From positions 94,590 to 158,589 of the forward strand of contig JAHFNB010000001.1 in the NCBI GenBank assembly GCA_023267595.1: a stretch of DNA of 64,000 nucleotides. The letters run 5' to 3'. This DNA is from a bacterium (GTDB lineage Bacteria; Patescibacteriota; Minisyncoccia; Phycocordibacterales; UBA5272). Position 1 is the first letter of the stretch. Each line of letters opens with the position of its first letter. A program made the position numbers and the translations under genes. This document shows, one piece after another, positions 4,839 through 37,791 of the stretch. The notes below the pieces were generated by a model. That model saw only the letters and a program-made list of their open reading frames with translations. It was not told the DNA's origin and did not search any database.

Positions 4839-6038
4839 GTGTGTATGGATAAAGTTATTACAGATGAATCAAAAATTGAGGAACTACTTACTCGTGGTGT
4901 AGAAGAAGTTATTGTAAAAGATGAATTAAAACAGGCACTTTTGTCTGGGAAACAATTACGTATCAAATTAGGTGTAGACCCAACAGGAGGGAAAATACAC
5001 ATTGGTCGTGCAGTTCCTCTTCGTAAACTAAGAGAGTTTCAACGTCTCGGACACCAAATCGTTTTTATTGTTGGTGATTTTACTGCTCAAGTGGGGGATG
5101 CATCTGATAAAAGTGAAAAGCGCCCAATGCTTACACGGGCACAAATTGATGAAAATCTTAAAGATTATAAGAGTCAGATTTCTAAAATATTAGATATTAC
5201 AAAAACTGAGTTTGTTTATAATAATGATTGGCTCTCTAAATTAACTTTTGCAGAAATTGTGACACTAGCAGAGTGTTTTTCTGTACAACAAATGCTTGCG
5301 CGTCGTAATTTTAAAGAAAGATATGAACAAGGAAAAGAAATATCACTTCGTGAATTTTTATATCCAATAATGCAAGGATATGATTCTGTTGCGGTAAAAG
5401 CAGATGTAGAGATAGGTGGGTTTGATCAACTTTTTAATTTAAAAGCAGGAAGAATTATTCAGGAACATTATGGTATGCCGAAGCAAAGCATTGTAACTTT
5501 TACAATGCTTGAAGGAACAGATGGTAGAAAAATGTCTACATCTTGGGGGAATATCATTTCTATTGTTGATGAACCATTTGATATGTTTGGAAAAATAATG
5601 GCATTACATGATGATCTTATTATCAAATATTTTACATTGTGCACTGACGTTTCGCTAGAAGAGATAGAAGGATTTAAAAAAGAATTAGAAGGTGGAGCAA
5701 ATCCAAAAGATATAAAAATGAGATTAGCACTTGAAATTGTGACGCTGTACCATACAGAAAAAGACGCCTCTCTTGCAAAAAACTCTTGGATTGAAACTTT
5801 TTCAAAAGGTGGTGTCCCAGAAAAAGTGCCTGAAATAATAACTGAAGAAGGAAAAGAGATAGGAGATGTGGTTGTTGAAAATAATATTGTTGCATCAAAG
5901 ACTGCGTGGCGACGTCTAGTAGAGGATAAAGCAGTTGGAGACACAAATGGAAATATAGTTACTGATGTAAAAGAATTAGTTAAGAACGTGACTCTTAAAA
6001 TAGGAAAGAAGAGATTTGTAAAAATTATAGTGAAATAA
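4839..6038 (+). CDS. tyrS: Tyrosyl-tRNA synthetase
   Basis: GVDPTGGKIHIGRAVPLRKLREFQRLGHQIVFIVGDFTAQVGDAS aligns with the bacterial TyrRS HIGH region. YPIMQGYDS and KMSTS (KMSKS-like) are present. C-terminal S4-like segment ASKTAWRRLVEDKAV. Confidence 0.8.
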   Translation: MCMDKVITDESKIEELLTRGVEEVIVKDELKQALLSGKQLRIKLGVDPTGGKIHIGRAVPLRKLREFQRLGHQIVFIVGDFTAQVGDASDKSEKRPMLTRAQIDENLKDYKSQISKILDITKTEFVYNNDWLSKLTFAEIVTLAECFSVQQMLARRNFKERYEQGKEISLREFLYPIMQGYDSVAVKADVEIGGFDQLFNLKAGRIIQEHYGMPKQSIVTFTMLEGTDGRKMSTSWGNIISIVDEPFDMFGKIMALHDDLIIKYFTLCTDVSLEEIEGFKKELEGGANPKDIKMRLALEIVTLYHTEKDASLAKNSWIETFSKGGVPEKVPEIITEEGKEIGDVVVENNIVASKTAWRRLVEDKAVGDTNGNIVTDVKELVKNVTLKIGKKRFVKIIVK

Positions 6039-21958: not shown

Positions 21959-22123
21959 TAGGCAGGAATTGGTTAAAAAATCAATTCATCGGCAGGATAT
22001 CTTCCTCAGTAATTATTTGTCGTCACAAATAATTCTTCGGACGGGCTCGTGGTTTTTCTTGCTAGAAAAACATCACTCCGCCTTTCGATTTCTGCATGAA
22101 AAGTGCGCAGGCACTTTTCTCTC

Positions 22124-22174
22124 GAGCACAAAATACAAAAGACCCCATTAAAGGGTCTTTTGTATTTTGTGCTC
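22124..22174. terminator. Very long perfect hairpin (22-bp stem) abutting and overlapping the 3' end of the minus-strand tRNA-Arg
   Basis: gagcacaaaatacaaaagaccc-cattaaa-gggtcttttgtattttgtgctc. The arms are exact reverse complements. Confidence 0.7.
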
Positions 22175-22241
22175 TCGGCAGGAATCGAACCTGCATCGCA
22201 AGTACCGCAAACTTGAATTCTATCCATTGAACTACGAGAGC
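22170..22241 (-). tRNA. tRNA-Arg (anticodon GCG)
   Basis: Reverse complement: GCTCTCG-TA-GTTC-AATGGATA-GAAT-T-CAAGT-TTGCGGT-ACTTG-CGAT-GCAGG-TTCGATT-CCTGC-CGAGAGC-A. The anticodon loop gives GCG with G37. Confidence 0.7.
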
Positions 22242-25584: not shown

Positions 25585-26043
25585 GTGCCTGAGAATTATA
25601 TAAGAAAACCAAATACGAAGTGCTCTCTATGTGGAGAATTAATTTATCGAAGACCTTCTGAAATAGAAAAATTACAAGGTCGTGTATTTTGTAGCGCATC
25701 TTGTTATGGTATTTCTTGTCGAAAGGAAATACCATGTCTTGTATGTGGAACATTGATGCTATCTGGTTTGAATAAAAAAACATGTAGTAGAAGTTGTGCA
25801 AATAAACATAGGACAGGGATACAATATAAACTTAATCGTCCAAAAGATAAGGTGATGACCTTAAGAAGGATTAAAATTAGATTGTTAGAATTAAGAGGGT
25901 TAAAATGTGAAAGATGTAGTTATAGTAAGAGCGAGGTTCTGCAAGTTCATCATAAGAATAGAAATAGGAATGATAATAGTATTAAAAATTTAGAGTTGAT
26001 TTGTCCAAATTGTCATTATGAAGAACACTATTTAAAAACTTAG
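25585..26043 (+). CDS. HNH endonuclease
   Basis: C-terminal HNH motif LQVHHKNRNRNDNSIKNLELICPNCH. N-terminal Cys clusters. Confidence 0.7.
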   Translation: MPENYIRKPNTKCSLCGELIYRRPSEIEKLQGRVFCSASCYGISCRKEIPCLVCGTLMLSGLNKKTCSRSCANKHRTGIQYKLNRPKDKVMTLRRIKIRLLELRGLKCERCSYSKSEVLQVHHKNRNRNDNSIKNLELICPNCHYEEHYLKT

Positions 26044-26081: not shown

Positions 26082-26169
26082 GGAGGAGTGGCAGAGTTGG
26101 TCTATCGCACTTGTCTTGAAAACAAGAGTCTGAGTAATCGGACCGTGAGTTCGAATCTCACCTCCTCCG
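26082..26169 (+). tRNA. tRNA-Ser (anticodon TGA), CCA encoded (to 26172)
   Basis: GGAGGAG/CTCCTCC acceptor. CTTGT-CTTGAAA-ACAAG anticodon arm. Long variable arm. GTGAG-TTCGAAT-CTCAC T-arm. Confidence 0.8.
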
Positions 26170-26175
26170 CCAAAT

Positions 26176-28797: not shown

Positions 28798-28895
28798 ATG
28801 TATGATAATAGCATGTCGATTGGCAGGAAGTTCGGTCACAAAGTCTATTTTGGTTACAAAATATAAGACTTCGCGACCCCTATTCGATTCCTGAC

Positions 28896-28917
28896 AAAAG
28901 CCAAGCAGTTGGCTTTT
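28896..28917. terminator. Hairpin terminator downstream of minus-strand tRNA-Arg(TCT)
   Basis: aaaagccaa-gcag-ttggctttt. Confidence 0.55.
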
Positions 28918-28947
28918 TCCTCAATCACAAATGCTTCGCTTATTTTG

Positions 28948-29019
28948 TGCCCTCGGCAGGAATCGAACCTGCAATAACGGCTTAGAAGTCCGCAGTTATA
29001 TCCATTTAACTACAAGGGC
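28948..29019 (-). tRNA. tRNA-Arg (anticodon TCT)
   Basis: Reverse complement: GCCCTTG-TA-GTTA-AATGGATA-TAAC-T-GCGGA-CTTCTAA-GCCGT-TATT-GCAGG-TTCGATT-CCTGC-CGAGGGC-A. The T-arm is identical to that of tRNA-Arg(GCG). One A31/G39 mismatch. Confidence 0.7.
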
Positions 29020-29933: not shown

Positions 29934-30368
29934 ATGACTATGAAGACAACTATTAAGTTAACTCCAGTTGATATTGCGTCTCGAAAAGCCCTTGATTTTT
30001 CAACAGGCGATGTTGTGTGCGTGTGGAACAAGATCAAAGAATCTGATGGAAAAACTCGTCTTCAAGCATTTGAAGGAATGGTACTTGCCCGTAAGCACGG
30101 TACAGAAATAGGGGCTACGTTTACTGTTCGTAAAGTTGCCTCAGGTGTAGGTGTAGAACGCGTATTTCCACTTTTTTCAGTTACTATTGATAAAATTGAA
30201 CTCGTTCGTCGTGCTCGTACTCGTCGCAGTAAACTTTACTATGTGCGTGATAAGGCGCTTCGTGATGTGCGTCGTAAGTTAAAGGCAGATACTCGTGTTG
30301 TAAAGAAAGGAAGTACAACAACTATGGAAGCAGTTGTAGAAGAAGAACCAAGTGAAGTTGTAGCATAA
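29934..30368 (+). CDS. rplS: 50S ribosomal protein L19
   Basis: DVVCVWNKIKESDGKTRLQAFEGMVLARKHGTEIGATFTVRKVASGVGVERVFPLFS. C-terminal extension. Confidence 0.9.
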   Translation: MTMKTTIKLTPVDIASRKALDFSTGDVVCVWNKIKESDGKTRLQAFEGMVLARKHGTEIGATFTVRKVASGVGVERVFPLFSVTIDKIELVRRARTRRSKLYYVRDKALRDVRRKLKADTRVVKKGSTTTMEAVVEEEPSEVVA

Positions 30369-30370
30369 TT

Positions 30371-30400
30371 AAAATCTCGACCAACGGTCGAGATTTTAAT
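30371..30400. terminator. Rho-independent terminator after rplS
   Basis: aaaatctcgacc-aac-ggtcgagatttt. Confidence 0.7.
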
Positions 30401-30449
30401 TTACCTACTTTCATGTTAGTATTTCATTACTTCTCGAAAGAGAAAATAT

Positions 30450-30511
30450 GCCCAGGTGGCGAAATTGGCAAAGAAAATATTTGCGTACGTCGTACGTCTA
30501 CCAATTTCGCC
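30450..30511 (+). pseudogene. tRNA-Leu-derived fragment: direct copy of tRNA nt 1-19 plus inverted copy of nt 10-29, forming an 11-bp hairpin
   Basis: 30450-30468 gcccaggtggcgaaattgg is identical to the start of tRNA-Leu at 30559. 30492-30511 is the reverse complement of ggcgaaattggtagacgtac. Confidence 0.6.
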
Positions 30512-30558
30512 GTTAAGGTGTAATATGTTTAGAGTTCAAGAAAGATGGTGTGTAATAT

Positions 30559-30642
30559 GCCCAGGTGGCGAAATTGGTAGACGTACTACCTTGAGGTGGT
30601 AGCGCTGGCAACAGCATGGAGGTTCAAGTCCTCTCCTGGGCA
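30559..30642 (+). tRNA. tRNA-Leu (anticodon GAG), long variable arm
   Basis: GCCCAGG/CCTGGGC acceptor. CTACC-TTGAGGT-GGTAG anticodon arm. 16-nt variable arm. GGAGG-TTCAAGT-CCTCT T-arm. Confidence 0.85.
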
Positions 30643-30694
30643 CATACATAAATTAAAAACAGACATAATTATGTCTGTTTTTAATTTATGTATG
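30643..30694. repeat. 52-nt perfect palindrome (26-bp arms), putative terminator immediately after tRNA-Leu
   Basis: catacataaattaaaaacagacataa|ttatgtctgtttttaatttatgtatg. The arms are exact reverse complements. Confidence 0.8.
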
Positions 30695-30757
30695 TCTTCA
30701 AAAAAAGTACGATATATGGTAGAGTAAAAGCCTAATTCAGAAATGAATTATGAATAT

Positions 30758-30833
30758 GGTGCCTATAGTGTAATGGTTAGCACGCGGGCTTGTGGAGCCC
30801 TCAGTTCGAGTTCGAATCTCGATAGGCACACCA
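30758..30833 (+). tRNA. tRNA-His (anticodon GTG) with encoded G-1 and CCA
   Basis: G-GTGCCTA...CGGGC-TTGTGGA-GCCCT...TCGAG-TTCGAAT-CTCGA-TAGGCAC-A-CCA. Confidence 0.8.
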
Positions 30834-30883: not shown

Positions 30884-31297
30884 ATGGAAGTAGGAACTTT
30901 TGCATTTATTCAAGATCAAGAAAAAAGAATATTGATGGTCAAGGATGTGACACGTCAGCAACTTTGGACATTACCAGGTGGGGGAGTGGATTTTAAAGAA
31001 TTAGTGCCTGATGCACTTATAAGAGAAGTAAAAGAAGAAACATCTTTAGATATTAACGTCGGTGGATTATTAGGAATATTTAGTCAACAGAAAACTCCAG
31101 GAATTGTTATTTTGTTTTCTGTAAAAGTTATAGGAGGAATACTTTCACCAAATGAGACAGAAACTAGTACGTGTGAATATTTTACAATAGAACAATTAAG
31201 TAAGATGAAGGAAGAAATAAAACCAGCGCAGTGGAGCATGATACATCAAGTTAATTCCAGTAAAGTATTTCCGATTTTTAATAGTTTCTCAGTTTAA
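30884..31297 (+). CDS. NUDIX hydrolase
   Basis: Nudix box GGGVDFKELVPDALIREVKEETSL. Confidence 0.75.
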   Translation: MEVGTFAFIQDQEKRILMVKDVTRQQLWTLPGGGVDFKELVPDALIREVKEETSLDINVGGLLGIFSQQKTPGIVILFSVKVIGGILSPNETETSTCEYFTIEQLSKMKEEIKPAQWSMIHQVNSSKVFPIFNSFSV

Positions 31298-31372
31298 GGA
31301 ATATAGTTCTAATGCTATCTATGAAAGTAAATCATGTAGAATTTTTTGGAACTGATATACTTGTATTAGTCT

Positions 31373-31777
31373 ATGAACACGTATAATTGGTACTCACAAC
31401 TTATTAAACCATCGTGGTCACCACCTTCGTGGCTTTTTGGTCCAGTATGGACGTTTCTGTATATCATTATTGCATTTTCATTCGGAACAGTTTTTTATAA
31501 AGTCATTACTAGAGAAATCTCGTGGGTAATTGCATTACCATTTGTCCTTAACCTTATTTTCAACTTTGCATTTACACCAATTCAATTTGGATTGAAAAAT
31601 AATATACTCGCAGCAATTGATATAGTACTCGTTCTAGGGACCCTTGTATGGGCGTTATATTCTCTCTGGCATGCTTTGCCTGATCTCCGTTGGGCGGTCT
31701 ATGCTAACATCCCGTATCTTTTGTGGGTAATATTTGCAACATGTCTTCAACTTACTATTATGTACCTCAATCGTTAG
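31373..31777 (+). CDS. tspO: TspO/MBR (tryptophan-rich sensory protein) family membrane protein
   Basis: LIKPSWSPPSWLFGPVWTFLYIIIAFSFG matches the TspO signature. Short, at 134 aa. Confidence 0.7.
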   Translation: MNTYNWYSQLIKPSWSPPSWLFGPVWTFLYIIIAFSFGTVFYKVITREISWVIALPFVLNLIFNFAFTPIQFGLKNNILAAIDIVLVLGTLVWALYSLWHALPDLRWAVYANIPYLLWVIFATCLQLTIMYLNR

Positions 31778-31795
31778 TTATTTTAATGTAACTTG

Positions 31796-32029
31796 TTAAT
31801 TTTTTGGAAGAAAAGATTCAAAGTATTCACTCATACCAAAATATCCTAAGACGTGTACGAGGATAGTAATAACTATCGTTGCAACGATAGTTGCTCCAAC
31901 AAATGTTCCTACACCGCTCACTATTCCACGTAGGAAGGTAAATCTGTAAGAGTTTAATCTCTCTAAGAGGACTAATAACTTTGCCACGTTATCATTTAAA
32001 GATTCTGTAGTATCTGGTACATCTTTCAT
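31796..32029 (-). CDS. Small membrane protein (hypothetical)
   Basis: Two hydrophobic helices. ORF only. Confidence 0.35.
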   Translation of the reverse strand: MKDVPDTTESLNDNVAKLLVLLERLNSYRFTFLRGIVSGVGTFVGATIVATIVITILVHVLGYFGMSEYFESFLPKN

Positions 32030-32093
32030 ATAGTTTACAGTCTAGCATCTCTTGACTGATATACTGCCTCTAATACTATGCAAACAATAAAAA

Positions 32094-32927
32094 ATGAAAA
32101 AACTTTCTATTTTTATCATACTACTTTCTGTTAGCCTAGTTTGTATCTACATTGTTTTTGTTTCCAAAAATAATGTAGAACAGATTCCAGAAGAGAAAAG
32201 TAAGATACAGTTATCTGTTAAAACTTCATGGCAGATTCAGTTACAAGGTATTTTCGGTAAAGATAGAGATTCTAATCTCTACATAGTGGATCTCTTTGAT
32301 GTGAGTACTACAACAGTACATTCTCTTAAGAGTCGTGGTAAAGTTGTTATTTGTTATTTTTCTGCAGGGACTGGAGAAGATTGGCGTACAGATTATTGGA
32401 AATTTAAAGAAAAAGATATGGGTAAAAAACTTACAGATTGGCCAGGAGAAAGATGGCTAGATACAAAATCTCTACATGTTAGAGAAATAATGGTATCTCG
32501 ACTCGATATCGCAAAAGATAAAGGATGTGATGGTGTAGATCCTGATAACATAGATGCTTATAGTAATGATAATGGTATCTTACTTACAGCGGATACTCAA
32601 ATTAAGTACAATATATTCCTTTCGGAGGAGGCACACAAAAGAGGATTACTTATTGGTTTGAAAAATGATGTCTCACAAATTAAGTATCTGGTTTCATATT
32701 TTGATTTTGCAACTAATGAACAATGTTTTAAATTTAGTGAGTGTGAGGGGTATAGTATTTTCACATCACATAATAAACCAGTATTTGACATCGAATACGA
32801 TACTGTGTATAGTAATAATATTCATGGAAGGCGTGATGATCTTTGTCGATTAGCAGACACGATGAATATAAGGACAATTATTTCATCCAAAGAATTAGAC
32901 GGAAGATTTATATATTCATGTGATTAA
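32094..32927 (+). CDS. Putative glycoside hydrolase family 114-like (endo-alpha-1,4-polygalactosaminidase-like) secreted/anchored protein
   Basis: N-terminal TM/signal. VVICYFSAGTGEDWRTDYW...WPGERWLDTKS...GCDGVDPDNIDAY pattern typical of GH114/DUF297 TIM-barrels. Confidence 0.55.
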   Translation: MKKLSIFIILLSVSLVCIYIVFVSKNNVEQIPEEKSKIQLSVKTSWQIQLQGIFGKDRDSNLYIVDLFDVSTTTVHSLKSRGKVVICYFSAGTGEDWRTDYWKFKEKDMGKKLTDWPGERWLDTKSLHVREIMVSRLDIAKDKGCDGVDPDNIDAYSNDNGILLTADTQIKYNIFLSEEAHKRGLLIGLKNDVSQIKYLVSYFDFATNEQCFKFSECEGYSIFTSHNKPVFDIEYDTVYSNNIHGRRDDLCRLADTMNIRTIISSKELDGRFIYSCD

Positions 32928-33002
32928 GAAGAACTTTATATTATGAAAGATAAGTATTAGATTTTTCGTAACAGTCTATATACCAGTAACACACACAACA
33001 TT

Positions 33003-33620
33003 ATGAACTACAATACAATTGCATCACAGGAATCAATAGAAAAGACAATACAAGCACTTAATGAGCATGGTATAGAAGGACTCTTTGTGCAGACAAAAGA
33101 AGAAGCATTAGAGAAAATAAAGACACTTATTCCACAAGGTGTTTCAGTGATGAATGGATCTTCTCGCACTCTTGAACAAATTGGATTTATTGAATATTTA
33201 AAATCTGGGACACATGGTTGGAATAATCTTCATGAAACAATCTTTAAAGAACAAGATCCTATAAAACAAGCAGAACTTCGTAAGCAATCAGTTATTTCAG
33301 ATGTATATCTAGGAAGTGTACATGCTATAAGTGAGGAAGGAGAAGTAGTAATTGCATCTGCTTCAGGAAGTCAGTTACCACATATTGTATTTACATCACA
33401 ACATGTTATTTTTGTTGTTGGAACACAAAAAATTACACCTACATTAGAAGAGGCTATCACTCGATTAAAAGAGTATGTATTTCCGCTAGAAGATAAGCGT
33501 GCAAAAGATGTGGGATATGGTGGAAGTGCGATTTCAAAAATAGTAATTATTAACAGTGAGCCAAAGAAAATGGGAAGAAAAGTACAAGTAATCTTTGTCA
33601 ATGAAGAATTAGGATTTTAA
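33003..33620 (+). CDS. LUD-domain (DUF162, LutC-like) protein
   Basis: About 205 aa. Pattern consistent with the LUD domain. Moderate. Confidence 0.5.
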   Translation: MNYNTIASQESIEKTIQALNEHGIEGLFVQTKEEALEKIKTLIPQGVSVMNGSSRTLEQIGFIEYLKSGTHGWNNLHETIFKEQDPIKQAELRKQSVISDVYLGSVHAISEEGEVVIASASGSQLPHIVFTSQHVIFVVGTQKITPTLEEAITRLKEYVFPLEDKRAKDVGYGGSAISKIVIINSEPKKMGRKVQVIFVNEELGF

Positions 33621-33653
33621 GGATAGATTCCTCATATTGCTATACTCTCTGGT

Positions 33654-34262
33654 ATGCATCTTAGAGATACGTATAATCTGATAGCAGAGGAATGGCATAA
33701 AGATCATCAGACGGATGATTGGTGGTTAGAAGGAACCGATACATTCATTTCTCTTTTACAACAAGGAGATACCGTACTTGATGTTGGATGTGGTGGAGGA
33801 ACAAAGAGTAAGTATCTTTTAGAGCATGGATTGCGTGTCACTGGTATAGATTTTTCTGAAAAATTACTTGAAATTGCTAGGAAAGAAAATAAAGACGGCG
33901 AGTTTATACTTATGGATATGTATGATGTTAAAGATTTACATACAACATTTAATGGTATTTTTGCACAAGCATCATTACTTCATATTCCCAAAAAAGATTT
34001 TACAACAATTGTCTCTTTACTCGTATCACAGTTACAGCAAGATGGTTTACTTTATATAGCAGTGAAAATTTCTTCAGGAAAAAATACTCAAGAAGAAATC
34101 AAAGAAGAAAATAAATATGGCCACACATATACACGGTTCTTCTCATATTATTCTATGGATGAACTTATTGATGCGTATAAAAAATCTGGATTAGAAGTTG
34201 TATATACAAGTAGTAATCAAACAGGGAATAAAGAATGGCTACAAATCATAGGAAGAAAGTAG
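33654..34262 (+). CDS. Class I SAM-dependent methyltransferase
   Basis: Motif I VLDVGCGGGTKSKYL. Post-I acidic residue GIDFSE. Confidence 0.75.
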   Translation: MHLRDTYNLIAEEWHKDHQTDDWWLEGTDTFISLLQQGDTVLDVGCGGGTKSKYLLEHGLRVTGIDFSEKLLEIARKENKDGEFILMDMYDVKDLHTTFNGIFAQASLLHIPKKDFTTIVSLLVSQLQQDGLLYIAVKISSGKNTQEEIKEENKYGHTYTRFFSYYSMDELIDAYKKSGLEVVYTSSNQTGNKEWLQIIGRK

Positions 34263-34298
34263 GTTTTATCTCCCTTTGTAAGATGTTAGAATAGATCC

Positions 34299-34769
34299 AT
34301 GAATACAAAACATATTATTATTATCGTTGGTGCCATAGTTGTTATTGGTCTTTTGGGAATTATAGGCTCTAGTATCTATAAAAAATATACATATATAACG
34401 CCTAGTGAATTTGGAACAAGTACTCCTATTACCACGAAAACTGAAGGTATTTTACAAGGCTCAGTAACTGTTGGTCCAGTATGTACAAAAGAAATCAAAG
34501 AAAAATACCCAACGTTCTCATGTTTGCCAACTCCTGAGATGTATGCAGCAGCACATGTTTTGGTATATATGCCAGATAAAAAGACATTAGTAAAAACAAT
34601 TATTCCTGATGGGCAAGGAAAGTTCAGTATTGCTCTTCCAGAAGGTGAATATTTTATAGACATGATTCATCAACGAATGGGTGGAACAAAAGGAGTACCA
34701 ACAACAGTGACCATTGTTCATGCAAAACCTGTAACACTTAAACTGGATGTAGATACAGGGTTACGATAG
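34299..34769 (+). CDS. Membrane-anchored hypothetical protein
   Basis: N-terminal TM IIIIVGAIVVIGLLGIIGSSI, followed by a beta-rich domain. Confidence 0.45.
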   Translation: MNTKHIIIIVGAIVVIGLLGIIGSSIYKKYTYITPSEFGTSTPITTKTEGILQGSVTVGPVCTKEIKEKYPTFSCLPTPEMYAAAHVLVYMPDKKTLVKTIIPDGQGKFSIALPEGEYFIDMIHQRMGGTKGVPTTVTIVHAKPVTLKLDVDTGLR

Positions 34770-34772
34770 AGT

Positions 34773-35219
34773 ATGTCATCACAAGAAGTAATTTTCTTCT
34801 ACGAACATGAGTATTATATGTTTTCTAACTTCTCTTCATTTGCTCTAGAGTGGAAAGGAAACGTATGGATGACGAGTGAACATGTCTATCATTCTGAACG
34901 ATTTGATAATGAAGAAATAAAAGAAAAAATAAGGAATATGCGTTCAGCGCACGAAGTATTCAGATTTGCTCAAGATAATAAATATCTCCAAATAAGCAAT
35001 TGGAATGAAATAAAGGTGGAGATTATGAAAGAAATTGTACGAGAAAAAATTGTTCAACATCCATATGTGAAAAAGAAATTGCTAGAGTCTGGCAGTAGAG
35101 AACTGATTGAAGATTCACCTCATGATGATTTCTGGGGATGGGGGAAAAATAAAGATGGAAAAAATCAGTTAGGAAAGATTTGGATGGAATTACGAGAAGA
35201 AATAAAAAAGACTACATGA
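34773..35219 (+). CDS. NADAR-domain protein (YbiA/DUF1768-like)
   Basis: FFYEHEYYMFSNFS...WMTSEHVYHSERF...DDFWGWG matches NADAR family hallmarks. Confidence 0.7.
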   Translation: MSSQEVIFFYEHEYYMFSNFSSFALEWKGNVWMTSEHVYHSERFDNEEIKEKIRNMRSAHEVFRFAQDNKYLQISNWNEIKVEIMKEIVREKIVQHPYVKKKLLESGSRELIEDSPHDDFWGWGKNKDGKNQLGKIWMELREEIKKTT

Positions 35220-35812
35220 AGCATATAAAAATTGGTGTAGATATGGATGAAGTATTGTGTGAACTTTTTCTTAGTCTGACTGACCGTTTCAATACCATTA
35301 ATGGTACATTTCATAATGTGCGTGATATACAACATTATGATTTAGAAAAATTGTATGGATGTACAAAAGAAGAATTAGGAGGGCTTCTGCGAGAGTTTTT
35401 TATCAGTAAAGACCATACAACCATGGTCCCGATTGTTGGAGCATTAGAAGGTATTGAAAAAATTAAAGACTTTGATCTTATTATTATAAGTGCAAGACCA
35501 GAACATACCAGAAATAAAACAGAGGAGTGGCTACATAAACATTTTCCAAATATATTTTCAGATATTCATTTAATTGGCGACCCAAGTGGACTAGGAGGCA
35601 TGGCTTTATCAAAAGGAGAATTTGCAAAAGAACTAGGTATACAAGTTTTTATAGAAGATTCATTAACAAATGCAAAAAATATAGCATCGTACGGTATCCC
35701 AGTTCTCCTTCTTGATAGAACGTGGAATCAAGGGGAGTTACCACCCCTTGTTACACGAGCATTTTCTTGGGAAGAAGCAGTATCTTTTATACAGAAAATG
35801 TTTAGAAAGTAG
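35216..35812 (+). CDS. HAD-superfamily 5'(3')-deoxyribonucleotidase-like protein
   Basis: Begins MKHIKIGVDMDEVLCELF (DxDxV/T motif). Overlaps the NADAR stop by 4 nt (ATGA). Confidence 0.65.
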   Translation: MKHIKIGVDMDEVLCELFLSLTDRFNTINGTFHNVRDIQHYDLEKLYGCTKEELGGLLREFFISKDHTTMVPIVGALEGIEKIKDFDLIIISARPEHTRNKTEEWLHKHFPNIFSDIHLIGDPSGLGGMALSKGEFAKELGIQVFIEDSLTNAKNIASYGIPVLLLDRTWNQGELPPLVTRAFSWEEAVSFIQKMFRK

Positions 35813-35827
35813 TGGTATACTTTTCTT

Positions 35828-36232
35828 ATGAGTGAAACTTCTGCATTCCCACGTGTGCATATGGATATGTATCCAAAACTTGTAAAAGAAGGAGTATTTA
35901 TTTTTGATGATGAAGTATGGAGTACACAAAAACGTATTGCACGTATTTACGGACGAAGTATTCCAACAGTAAATGATCATTTAAAGAAGATTTATAAAGA
36001 AAAAGAATTAATAAAAGCAGGGTCTGAACGAGTACTCGTTATTACACAACAAGAAGGAAAGAAAAAAGTTTCTCGTAACATTTATGTGTACAACACGGAT
36101 GTTGTCATTGCTATTGGATTTCGTGTAAAAGGGGAATGGGGAAAACAGTTTCGTATTTGGGCACGTGAAGTAGTACGAGCAAGTTATGATCCAAAGGAAC
36201 AAATCCGTCATCTAACGGGGAGGAAAAACTAA
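35828..36232 (+). CDS. RhuM-family (virulence protein RhuM-like) N-terminal fragment
   Basis: VLVITQQEGKKKVSRNIYVYNTDVVIAIGFRVKGEWGKQFRIWAREVV matches the RhuM core. Only 134 aa, against about 330 for full-length RhuM. Confidence 0.55.
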   Translation: MSETSAFPRVHMDMYPKLVKEGVFIFDDEVWSTQKRIARIYGRSIPTVNDHLKKIYKEKELIKAGSERVLVITQQEGKKKVSRNIYVYNTDVVIAIGFRVKGEWGKQFRIWAREVVRASYDPKEQIRHLTGRKN

Positions 36233-37791
36233 GTGAGGTGGTCGTGGAGATACTGTGTAGTTACAGATAATTTCTTGTTAGGGTTAAAAATCATATGAGG
36301 GTCCCATGCACTTTTTATTCTCATAAAGAGTTCACGCATAGATTCATTGTAAACGTATGAAAGGTATGGAGTACGAGCAAGACCTTCTCCACCTACTGCA
36401 CTAATACCGCCTCTATGTTTTTTTACGCACGAAAAAATAGTTTCATTGTAGACACGGATGTCATCACTTAAGGTGGAAGATTTTTTATCAAAAAGTGTGA
36501 TGATACGTATATGTCCACTCCCTGCATTTCCTGTGATGGTATATAATCTGCCAGAATGTGATAAGTATGTATCTAATTCATTAAGTACAACTCCATAATG
36601 ATGAAGTGGAACAATAATACCATCTCCTGTTGTTATAGGGATGTGAGTACCACCAGTGTATGCATCACACAAAGATACACAAAAAGAGAGTGTCGCAATA
36701 TGTTCACTATAGAGTGTGTCATCACGATGTGTAATAAGTTCTTCTTTGATAGGAAGTGCACGGATAAATGTGCGTACTTTTGAATGTACTTTTTCTTTGT
36801 CTGTATCACGATGTGTTATAAGGAGTGTGTAAGGTGTATCAATAGATATAGGAATAAGTCCTGCGTGGTATTTGTTTGCTAGATCTTTGAATGTTGAGTC
36901 ATATAAAAATATATGTTCGGCATTGTGATGTCGCGCTATTTCAAGACAAGAAGTAAGTAATGATGTATCAGTAACAGGAATCAATGTTGTAACAGAATGT
37001 TCTTTGTAAGGGGACAAACGTAGTGTAACTGAAGTGATAATGCCAAGTGTCCCTTCAGAGCCAACGAGTTCATCAAGAAGTTGTCTAGGGCCAATAGTTG
37101 TATTCCATAGGCTATATCCCGTAGCGTCATCTGCCATTTCTGGTTTTGCAGCGCGAAGTATTGGACCGCCTTCGGTAAGAATTGGAAAGACGGCTTGATA
37201 AATACCTAGTAGTCGTCCACTTGGGGTTATGCCATCTGCTATTCTGTGTTCTTCCCCAGTATCAACAACAACAGTGAGTGCTTCTACCCATTCACGTATT
37301 GTTCCATGATGAAATGACGAAGGTGTAGCACTTTTTGTTGCAAGTAAACCACCAAGAGTTGCCAGTTCATCATCGTGAGTAAGAGCAGGAACATCAACGT
37401 GCCAACCATGTAATTTTTCACGTAATGTTTTAATAGAAACTCCTGCATCGACGGTAATAGTATGTTCCATCATGTTGATTTGCCGAATATGCGTGAAGTA
37501 CCGTGTCAAATCAATAATAATTCCTTCACCTAATGATCCACCATTTCGAGATGTGCCACCACCTCGAACAGTAATAGGCATTCGGTATTCTCGTGCAAAT
37601 GAGACGATATATTTAATATCGGTGGCATTTTTAGGGTACAGTATTGCTTGTGGATATACACGATAAGGTGAACCATCTGTACTGTAATCAGTTATTGCTC
37701 TTCCTGTACAGTCAATATCTCCAGTAAGTAATTGGGCAAGATCTGCAAAAAGCGGTGGAACTCCAGAGAGAATACTAGATACCGTTCGCAT
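36229..37791 (-). CDS. FAD-binding (PCMH-type) oxidoreductase, GlcD/D-lactate dehydrogenase-like
   Basis: FAD_binding_4-like N-terminal region (RGGGTSRNGGSLGEG). 520 aa. Confidence 0.75.
   Translation of the reverse strand: MRTVSSILSGVPPLFADLAQLLTGDIDCTGRAITDYSTDGSPYRVYPQAILYPKNATDIKYIVSFAREYRMPITVRGGGTSRNGGSLGEGIIIDLTRYFTHIRQINMMEHTITVDAGVSIKTLREKLHGWHVDVPALTHDDELATLGGLLATKSATPSSFHHGTIREWVEALTVVVDTGEEHRIADGITPSGRLLGIYQAVFPILTEGGPILRAAKPEMADDATGYSLWNTTIGPRQLLDELVGSEGTLGIITSVTLRLSPYKEHSVTTLIPVTDTSLLTSCLEIARHHNAEHIFLYDSTFKDLANKYHAGLIPISIDTPYTLLITHRDTDKEKVHSKVRTFIRALPIKEELITHRDDTLYSEHIATLSFCVSLCDAYTGGTHIPITTGDGIIVPLHHYGVVLNELDTYLSHSGRLYTITGNAGSGHIRIITLFDKKSSTLSDDIRVYNETIFSCVKKHRGGISAVGGEGLARTPYLSYVYNESMRELFMRIKSAWDPHMIFNPNKKLSVTTQYLHDHLT

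Follow-up and report, generated by a model that had tools for sequence, protein, structure and literature searches.

A hairpin-forming putative leader block upstream of tRNA-Leu(GAG) in a patescibacterium, possibly derived by local duplication and inversion of the 5′ end of the tRNA unit

A 64 kb stretch of contig JAHFNB010000001.1 (the window, to which all coordinates refer unless a related locus is named) carries, upstream of its intact gene for tRNA-Leu(GAG), a copy of the first 19 nt of that tRNA and an inverted copy of part of the same gene. We hold with moderate confidence that this block arose by duplication-inversion of local sequence where the tRNA-Leu(GAG) unit begins and now forms a leader hairpin in which an antisense segment is masked. 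Judged from the sequence, the order of the parts is promoter, leader and tRNA nt 1-19/28, inverted nt 9-31, a degenerate promoter/leader, and the intact tRNA. An initial annotation of the window had noticed the partial copies and read them either as a scar of integration or excision, which it favored, or as a tRNA-derived regulatory structure.

The intact tRNA-Leu(GAG) lies at 30559-30643 (+ strand, as do all parts of the block) and was placed by both ARAGORN and Rfam (RF00005, 50.4 bits), as was the tRNA-His gene 3′ of it (30759-30833). The upstream copy of tRNA nt 1-19 at 30450-30468 is exact, as had been stated, and the repeat extends further than was claimed: together with the 5 nt leader AATAT it spans 24 nt (30445-30468) and is 100% identical to 30554-30577, where the same leader runs into nt 1-19 of the functional tRNA. 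These direct-repeat partners are 109 bp apart and bracket 85 bp of non-coding DNA. When the tRNA 19-mer was searched with up to 3 mismatches, only two sites were found in the 64 kb, and none in 100 dinucleotide-preserving shuffles. Nucleotides 9-19 of the upstream fragment form the 5′ strand of the lower hairpin stem. They are followed by an A-rich linker, CAAAGAAAATATTT (30469-30482), which stands in for tRNA nt 20-22/23 and stays single-stranded when the hairpin forms, and then by an upper stem-loop, GCGTAC-GTC-GTACGT (30483-30497), the 5′ strand of which resembles tRNA nt 23-28. This symmetry center, directly after the tRNA-like nt 23-28, is the head-to-head junction of the direct and inverted copies.

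The inverted (antisense) arm at 30489-30511 is the reverse complement of tRNA nt 9-31 and matches 30567-30589 at 22 of 23 positions. Within it, 30492-30511 is the exact reverse complement of ggcgaaattggtagacgtac, as first described, but the tRNA segment concerned is nt 9-28 (30567-30586) and not nt 10-29, the earlier numbering being off by one. The final 11 nt of the arm pair with 30458-30468, so the reported 11-bp stem (30458-30468 with 30501-30511) is present, and the two CGTACG motifs that had been placed in its loop (30484-30489 and 30491-30496) turn out to be the two strands of the 6-bp upper stem GCGTAC/GTACGT. The CTA of the arm (30498-30500) is unpaired in the hairpin and complementary to U20-A21-G22 of the tRNA. 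Between the arm and the downstream repeat lies a spacer (30512-30553) with a degenerate promoter-like sequence, TGTTTAGAGT, at 30526-30535, which we read as a decayed second copy of the promoter/leader.

Relatives were retrieved by an L19 protein scan with one genome taken per species, which gave 80 syntenic loci (L-numbered below; best identity 92%). All are Patescibacteria, mostly labeled Paceibacterota, Nomurabacteria or Parcubacteria, and their usual gene order is rplS, tRNA-Leu(GAG), tRNA-His. A fragment together with an inverted arm occurs in the window and in eight other Paceibacteria species. In six of these (L001, L005, L015, L022, L038 and L042) the positions are about -90 to -110 for the direct copy (nt 1-19) and about -45 to -70 for the inverted copy (about nt 10-28). 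These six and the window also agree in their junctions, and their linkers and upper stems can be aligned. The remaining two, L021 and L044, represent a variant in which a TCGAG insert interrupts the fragment. An insert of this kind, about 50 nt long (TCGAG-stem-loop-CGAAGA-stem-loop), follows nt 9-11 of the fragment in L021, L044 and L038 at tRNA-Leu and in L018 at tRNA-Val; its stems differ among the copies, and it is absent from the window. L038 has two nested upstream tRNA-Leu fragments, L013 carries a decayed copy of the block, and L078 retains a fragment with no inverted arm.

The block is scattered over a clade of about 45 species in both an L19 tree and an RluA+L19 tree, and every carrier has a close block-free relative. 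Flanking DNA among block-bearing species is only about 72-83% identical, and the spacers are unalignable. The strand of tRNA-Leu relative to rplS is opposite to that of the window in ten loci (L004, L008, L011, L015, L019, L020, L022, L028, L068 and L078), and tRNA-Val also flips strand between species. In L015 and L022 the module of promoter, fragment, arm and tRNA is inverted as one unit.

In 22 block-free relatives, a TGnTAGTAT motif typically stands 23-37 nt (median 29.5) before the first nucleotide of the tRNA, and the leader typically ends in ATAT. In the window the corresponding extended -10 promoter-like motif, TGTTAGTAT (30414-30422), which conservation suggests to be the ancestral tRNA-Leu promoter, lies 27 nt before the upstream fragment, and the distance is 25-51 nt in seven of the nine block-bearing loci. 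The fragment of L042 comes directly after the rplS stop codon, which is the position of the tRNA in its relative L045. Because the fragment occupies the promoter-proximal tRNA slot of block-free relatives, we take it to be the retained original 5′ end, and the added material would then be the linker through the second AATAT plus nt 1-19. The genome-specific leader sequence taken into the direct repeat measures 5 nt in the window; L013 has 15 nt of it and L044 has 20 nt. Similarity of the spacer to the local promoter/leader was matched by only 1 of 500 shuffles in L022 and by none of 500 in L044, and was marginal in L015 (33/500). We also considered that the whole tRNA had been duplicated in tandem and its upstream copy had then decayed, and rejected this since the spacer is promoter/leader-like and unlike the tRNA 3′ half.

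Such a product could have been made in situ by a break near the junction of the D-arm and the anticodon-arm, followed by template-switch or fold-back replication or repair; once the substitution by the linker is counted, the retained piece would reach to about nt 28. Known template-switch products (quasipalindrome correction, or the duplication-inverted duplications of fork stalling and microhomology-mediated break-induced replication) resemble the block in their direct-inverted-direct order, in junctions at short homologies within hairpin-prone sequence, and in material copied from the neighborhood. They differ in usually being one-off events, whereas the block persists across species, remains identical to a functional gene and contains a conserved, non-templated linker.

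Fragments of tRNA near tRNA genes are commonly put down to integrated elements (PMC9897764), and the initial annotation had preferred an integration scar on account of the accessory genes downstream. The ten open reading frames (ORFs) 3′ of tRNA-His (30884-37791) comprise, in order, NUDIX, TspO, GH114, LUD, methyltransferase, an ORF with no Pfam match, NADAR, NT5C, a RhuM fragment and a FAD oxidase, with no integrase or recombinase among them, and no shift in base composition was seen across the region. A short ORF at 35828-36232 (+ strand), with a partial RhuM-family match, is the sole mobile-element-like hint in this downstream gene block. No second repeat boundary was found in the 64 kb when either the 5′ or the 3′ end of the tRNA was sought with up to 3 mismatches. 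Within the fetched flank, none of the 80 related loci has the window's downstream genes, and the eight other species carry the fragment and arm without NUDIX, TspO, GH114 or LUD. The absent far repeat, the absent recombinase and the occurrence of the block in species lacking the downstream genes largely refute an att scar of a genomic island. The block does share with attL/attR repeats a partial tRNA copy that stands as a direct repeat beside an intact tRNA gene, but here the repeat runs from leader position -5 to tRNA nt 19 and brackets only 85 bp, and the block includes an inverted copy and local material.

A miniature version of this explanation would make the block a non-autonomous element of 85-109 bp, mobilized in trans and inserted into the D-loop in such a way that the 5′ end was restored, or else a remnant of a larger element. 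It would account for the direct repeat on both sides of the block, for a GG/CAAAAGA junction that is the same at tRNA-Leu and tRNA-Val, for the nested fragments of L038 and the patchy distribution on the trees, and for the non-tRNA hairpins that are conserved across different tRNAs in the 3′ flank elements described below. We nevertheless consider it very improbable. The genome-specific leader within the repeat and a spacer derived from the local promoter imply that the material was not imported; there are no terminal inverted repeats, the inverted arm being internal and complementary to the flank; and the block occupies a single locus in the 64 kb, with no integrase or transposase nearby. A MITE or other IS-derived miniature element would have terminal inverted repeats and several copies, which this block lacks. 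The segment duplicated by integrases that target tRNA genes begins at the anticodon or T loop and takes in the rest of the 3′ portion; here it is the 5′ end that is duplicated. Scans of viral contigs with the linker junction and with the core of the 3′ elements gave chance or coding matches only, with the block architecture absent and no sign of a phage attP. A metagenome scan with GGTGGCGRAAYTGGYAAA gave 122 matches, four of which had a second copy nearby and none the block architecture; this query also matched ordinary tRNAs with a GGTAAAC D-loop as well as chance sites. A Mutator/IS256-type transposase ORF lies about 190 nt 3′ of tRNA-Leu in one related locus (L038:1985-2947).

The tRNA-derived pieces have changed in concert with the resident gene. 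Substitutions at tRNA nt 5, 13, 16 and 26 are mirrored in both fragment and arm, and a fragment departs from its local tRNA only at the unpaired U8, in L022. Across the block the loci of L021 and L044 are orthologues (82.6% identity over 1.6 kb), and the 20-nt identical leader present only in L044 is therefore read as a recent conversion tract. In the alignment of the seven species that share the same junctions, 95% of hairpin cells are paired and three pairs are compensatory, a covariation score reached by none of 500 shuffles; the pair at tRNA nt 26, for example, is T-A in the window and C-G in the other species. The CTA of the arm is invariant across the seven. The linker, CAAAAGA(N5-8), is found in the six other species at tRNA-Leu and again in upstream fragments of tRNA-Val, and has no donor in the tRNA. 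At the tRNA-Val of L014, the fragment has diverged from its tRNA (TTAATTCA versus TTAGCTCA) and the inverted arm has followed the fragment (TGAATTAA). It is likely that the pieces are kept identical to the resident tRNA by gene conversion between the repeats, by selection for pairing, or by both. The conserved linker and the co-divergence at L014 go beyond what conversion from the tRNA would give.

From the conserved upstream promoter, the block would be transcribed as a 5′ leader of about 130 nt on the precursor of tRNA-Leu, and no terminator-like site was found on the + strand between TGnTAGTAT and the tRNA. In the emerging RNA the old fragment would pair with the inverted arm, giving a hairpin of 11 + 6 bp and masking the arm, which would otherwise trap the tRNA by pairing with 20-23 nt of its body. 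The tRNA would then fold, and RNase P would cut off the leader. The leader folded alone is predicted to form this fragment:arm hairpin. In the predicted minimum free energy (MFE) structure of the whole precursor, the arm lies instead on tRNA nt 8-28 and the acceptor strand of the fragment on the tRNA 3′ strand, and this arm-on-tRNA state is the MFE structure in six of the seven species. The MFE of the precursor is lower than the sum of the separate folds by 17 kcal/mol in the window and by 6-13 kcal/mol in the other six species, values that show potential rather than behavior, as nearest-neighbor models leave out tRNA tertiary structure and co-transcriptional order. The folds suggest that the arm is not innocuous: either it is masked by the earlier-transcribed fragment, which we prefer, or its competition for the tRNA serves as a control, as the main rival reading would have it. 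With masking, the element would be tolerated and self-neutralizing, lost by many lineages, and not an essential device.

A number of results weigh against a duplicated and then masked leader. The hairpin region alone is thermodynamically unexceptional (z = -1.64, with 16 of 200 shuffles folding as well), and nt 1-8 of the old fragment, its acceptor strand, stay unmasked by the hairpin. Similarity of the spacer to the promoter/leader is not significant in the window itself (407/500 shuffles), nor in L001, L005 and L042. Covariation cannot separate selection from conversion, because all three compensatory pairs also mirror the tRNA. The conservation of CAAAAGA, and its recurrence at tRNA-Val, is explained neither by conversion nor by a one-off repair event. 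Finally, a 109-bp insert between 24-nt direct repeats should be deleted easily, so that it is hard to see how pure neutrality would account for its survival in at least nine species whose divergence is nearly saturated.

The main rival is a selected riboregulator, which we regard as a tentative possibility. The arm would pair either with the old fragment, so that the tRNA matures, or with tRNA nt 9-31 in a non-productive fold that uses CUA as a toehold and in which the acceptor strand of the fragment pairs with the tRNA 3′ strand. The maturation of tRNA-Leu(GAG) would then be tuned through temperature, the speed of transcription, cleavage of the linker or a protein bound to it. Two mutually exclusive pairings are indeed predicted, with the antisense-bound state most often the MFE structure; the CTA is invariant though unpaired in the hairpin; and the A-rich linker motif is conserved at tRNA-Leu and recurs at tRNA-Val. 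Retention of the upstream promoter in seven of nine block-bearing loci and long retention of the block despite a deletion-prone direct repeat point the same way, as do G-U pairs at the stem base, which are tolerated only in RNA of the + strand. Synthetic leaders that sequester the 5′ region of a pre-tRNA are reported to control RNase P cleavage (PMC7897497). On the other hand, most relatives, among them the nearest (L003, L002 and L250), do not have the block, which is therefore dispensable, and the copy in L013 has decayed. The inverted pieces at tRNA-Val and tRNA-Ser are short and discontinuous, so strong antisense pairing is not general. There is also no Rfam family, known ligand or protein partner, and leader and tRNA would be produced 1:1. 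Against Rfam 15, only the tRNA scored at the gathering threshold, and nothing credible appeared up to E = 10.

Attenuators and designed RNase P riboswitches (PMC7897497) likewise have three segments of which the middle one can pair with either neighbor, and in our predictions the alternative fold would keep the RNase P substrate from forming; the block differs in that its competing segments are copies of the tRNA itself and in having no known signal or ligand, and neither Rfam nor the papers found contained a natural pre-tRNA leader of its kind. A role of the hairpin as a terminator or attenuator was rejected, as no T-run follows it in any species. A leader peptide, for which a 22-codon ORF starts at the ATG at 30448, was rejected too, as neither a ribosome-binding site nor any CUC or CUU codon was seen by eye. 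As modeled, the leader hairpin could be a regulator of maturation or merely tolerated. The initial annotation's interpretation is supported in part: its alternative to a scar, a tRNA-derived structure that may be regulatory, fits all of the findings, short of proof.

A local duplication-inversion, the explanation we favor for the origin of the block, assumes a break, and a homing endonuclease would be a specific source for it. A LAGLIDADG enzyme would have cut at the pseudo-palindrome GGTAGACGCACTACC (tRNA-Leu nt 18-32), and fold-back or template-switch repair would have left the old 5′ part, ending at about nt 28, head-to-head with its own inverted copy and beside a re-copied intact gene. LAGLIDADG ORFs lie directly upstream of tRNA-Leu in L003, L034, L059 and L074 (Pfam PF14528 was confirmed for L003 only), and L003 is the closest relative of the window in both trees. 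In L003 (4955-5650) the ORF, at 4955-5611, overlaps the start of tRNA-Leu, and equivalents exist in the other three loci. Upstream of every such ORF stands a conserved tRNA-Leu-like piece (nt ~17-38, GGTAGACGCTATTACCTTGAGG) with a disrupted center, and the tRNA-Leu that follows it differs from the common type at nt 18-32. This arrangement looks like a homing cassette targeting tRNA-Leu at the D/anticodon junction.

The putative homing site is close to the ends of the Leu fragments, which stop at nt 28-30, including that of the arm-less L078; a link to the block is suggestive only. In the window, no such gene adjoins tRNA-Leu, there is no ORF between rplS and tRNA-Leu, and the HNH-domain ORF (25585-26043, + strand) adjoins another tRNA, ending 38 nt before tRNA-Ser(TGA) (26082-26172). 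The cleavage specificity is putative, the conserved linker is left unexplained, and the fragment at tRNA-Val ends at nt 37, another breakpoint. The intact tRNA also retains the putative target, so the rearrangement would have brought no immunity. A homing-endonuclease footprint seems improbable to us.

A wider survey, made with exact-match scans for partial tRNA copies flanking tRNAs in the related loci, showed that the block is not the only structure of its type. Upstream tRNA fragments were found at tRNA-Val in L001, L003, L014, L018, L031 and L035, and at tRNA-Ser in L022. At the tRNA-Val of L001, L003, L014 and L035 the order is nt 1-19, A-rich linker, direct tRNA piece and inverted copy, and in L018, L031 (tRNA-Val) and L022 (tRNA-Ser) the fragment comes without the A-rich linker. 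Mirror-image elements lie 3′ of tRNA genes for Leu, Val, Arg and His, and the related loci contain 30 members of this family. Their order is an antisense of the acceptor 3′-strand, hairpin 1, an antisense of the T-arm, hairpin 2, and a copy of tRNA nt ~56-76. In hairpin 1 a stem of 9 bp carries a CTGC loop; over 18 copies 98.8% of positions are paired and eight of the nine pairs are compensatory. No Rfam family matched the 3′ elements.

Two of these 3′ elements lie in the window, both on the - strand. That at 28821-28920, downstream of tRNA-Arg(TCT) (28947-29019), consists of a hairpin (AAAAAGCCAA-CTGC-TTGGCTTTT), the T-arm antisense CAGGAATCGAA, a long hairpin (GGGGTCGCGAAG...CTTTGTGACC) and a degenerate copy of the T-stem/acceptor. 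That at 21989-22129, downstream of tRNA-Arg(GCG) (22169-22241), consists of an acceptor antisense, the hairpin AAAGTGC-CTGC-GCACTTT, the T-arm antisense GCAGAAATCGAA, two more hairpins and the direct copy ATCCTGCCGA. A single event giving rise to both the 5′ and the 3′ flank structures was rejected, their co-occurrence not being significant (3/9 versus 7/62, p = 0.11). The hairpin in the window could belong to an undescribed Paceibacteria class of tRNA-templated flank elements that serve individual tRNAs as functional RNAs or recombination sites, a proposal we find doubtful. Its 5′ form would be a leader with a copy and an antisense of the tRNA 5′ part, and its 3′ form a T-arm/acceptor antisense and copy around two conserved, strongly covarying hairpins. 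If the proposal is true, such a class might act in cis or in trans on the folding, processing or turnover of tRNAs, or supply guide-like or decoy-like RNAs, in place of protein control in reduced genomes.

Group I introns measure at least about 200 nt, have a P1-P9 core and separate exons that must be joined. Those in tRNA genes of Patescibacteria (PMC13011429) resemble the block in coming from the same phylum, in interrupting a tRNA gene and in containing an internal, guide-like complement of the preceding exon-like piece. They differ from the block, which is 109 nt long, lies at the D-loop rather than the anticodon loop, is followed by a complete tRNA and needs no splicing, and Rfam matched no intron in it. 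The literature we found on such tRNA-flank structures was confined to these introns, to fragments left by integrated elements (PMC9897764) and to designed RNase P riboswitches (PMC7897497), and none of it described the structures reported here.

The upstream neighbor of the block is rplS (ORF 29934-30368; Pfam Ribosomal_L19 is on record for an identical gene), followed by a terminator-like hairpin (30360-30408, + strand) with 23-nt arms that are 87% complementary, which would close the preceding transcription unit. Between the promoter-like motif and the block, a small leader hairpin, TTCTC-GAAA-GAGAA (30431-30444), is predicted in the precursor fold, and leaders of the CTTCnnnGAAG type are found in relatives both with and without the block. 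A perfect, loopless 27-bp palindrome that starts in the last bases of tRNA-Leu (30642-30695, + strand) resembles a terminator and probably closes the tRNA-Leu unit. Many more perfect hairpins of 16-22 bp, flanked by A-runs and T-runs, occur in the window and look like bidirectional terminators. On the minus strand there is a promoter-like TTGCCA-17-TATTTT at 30471-30443; promoter-like matches in the region are no commoner than in shuffles. At the site, 6.4 kb are 100% identical to a separate public contig, ENA ERZ27279977 (88 kb), which is probably the same assembly, and look-ups of exact proteins returned either this contig at 100% identity or relatives without the block. An assembly artefact is unlikely because the architecture recurs in metagenome-assembled genomes of unrelated studies.

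For the prediction of genomic islands in uncultivated lineages the block is a caution, as part of a tRNA next to the full gene is routinely taken to mark a past integration, wrongly in this case. In this Paceibacteria clade, tRNA genes are hot spots of local rearrangement, with fragments at Leu, Val and Ser, 3′ elements, LAGLIDADG cassettes and strand flips, which bears on how single-copy essential genes survive in tiny genomes. The 3′ elements, candidates for a new structured motif, could prove more rewarding to follow than the tRNA-Leu block itself. If the leader is transcribed, the block would belong to a natural pre-tRNA with a leader that carries a perfect antisense to the tRNA body, held in check by a decoy copy, an arrangement otherwise known only from designed RNase P riboswitches, and it would make leader-controlled tRNA maturation testable in bacteria without many protein regulators.

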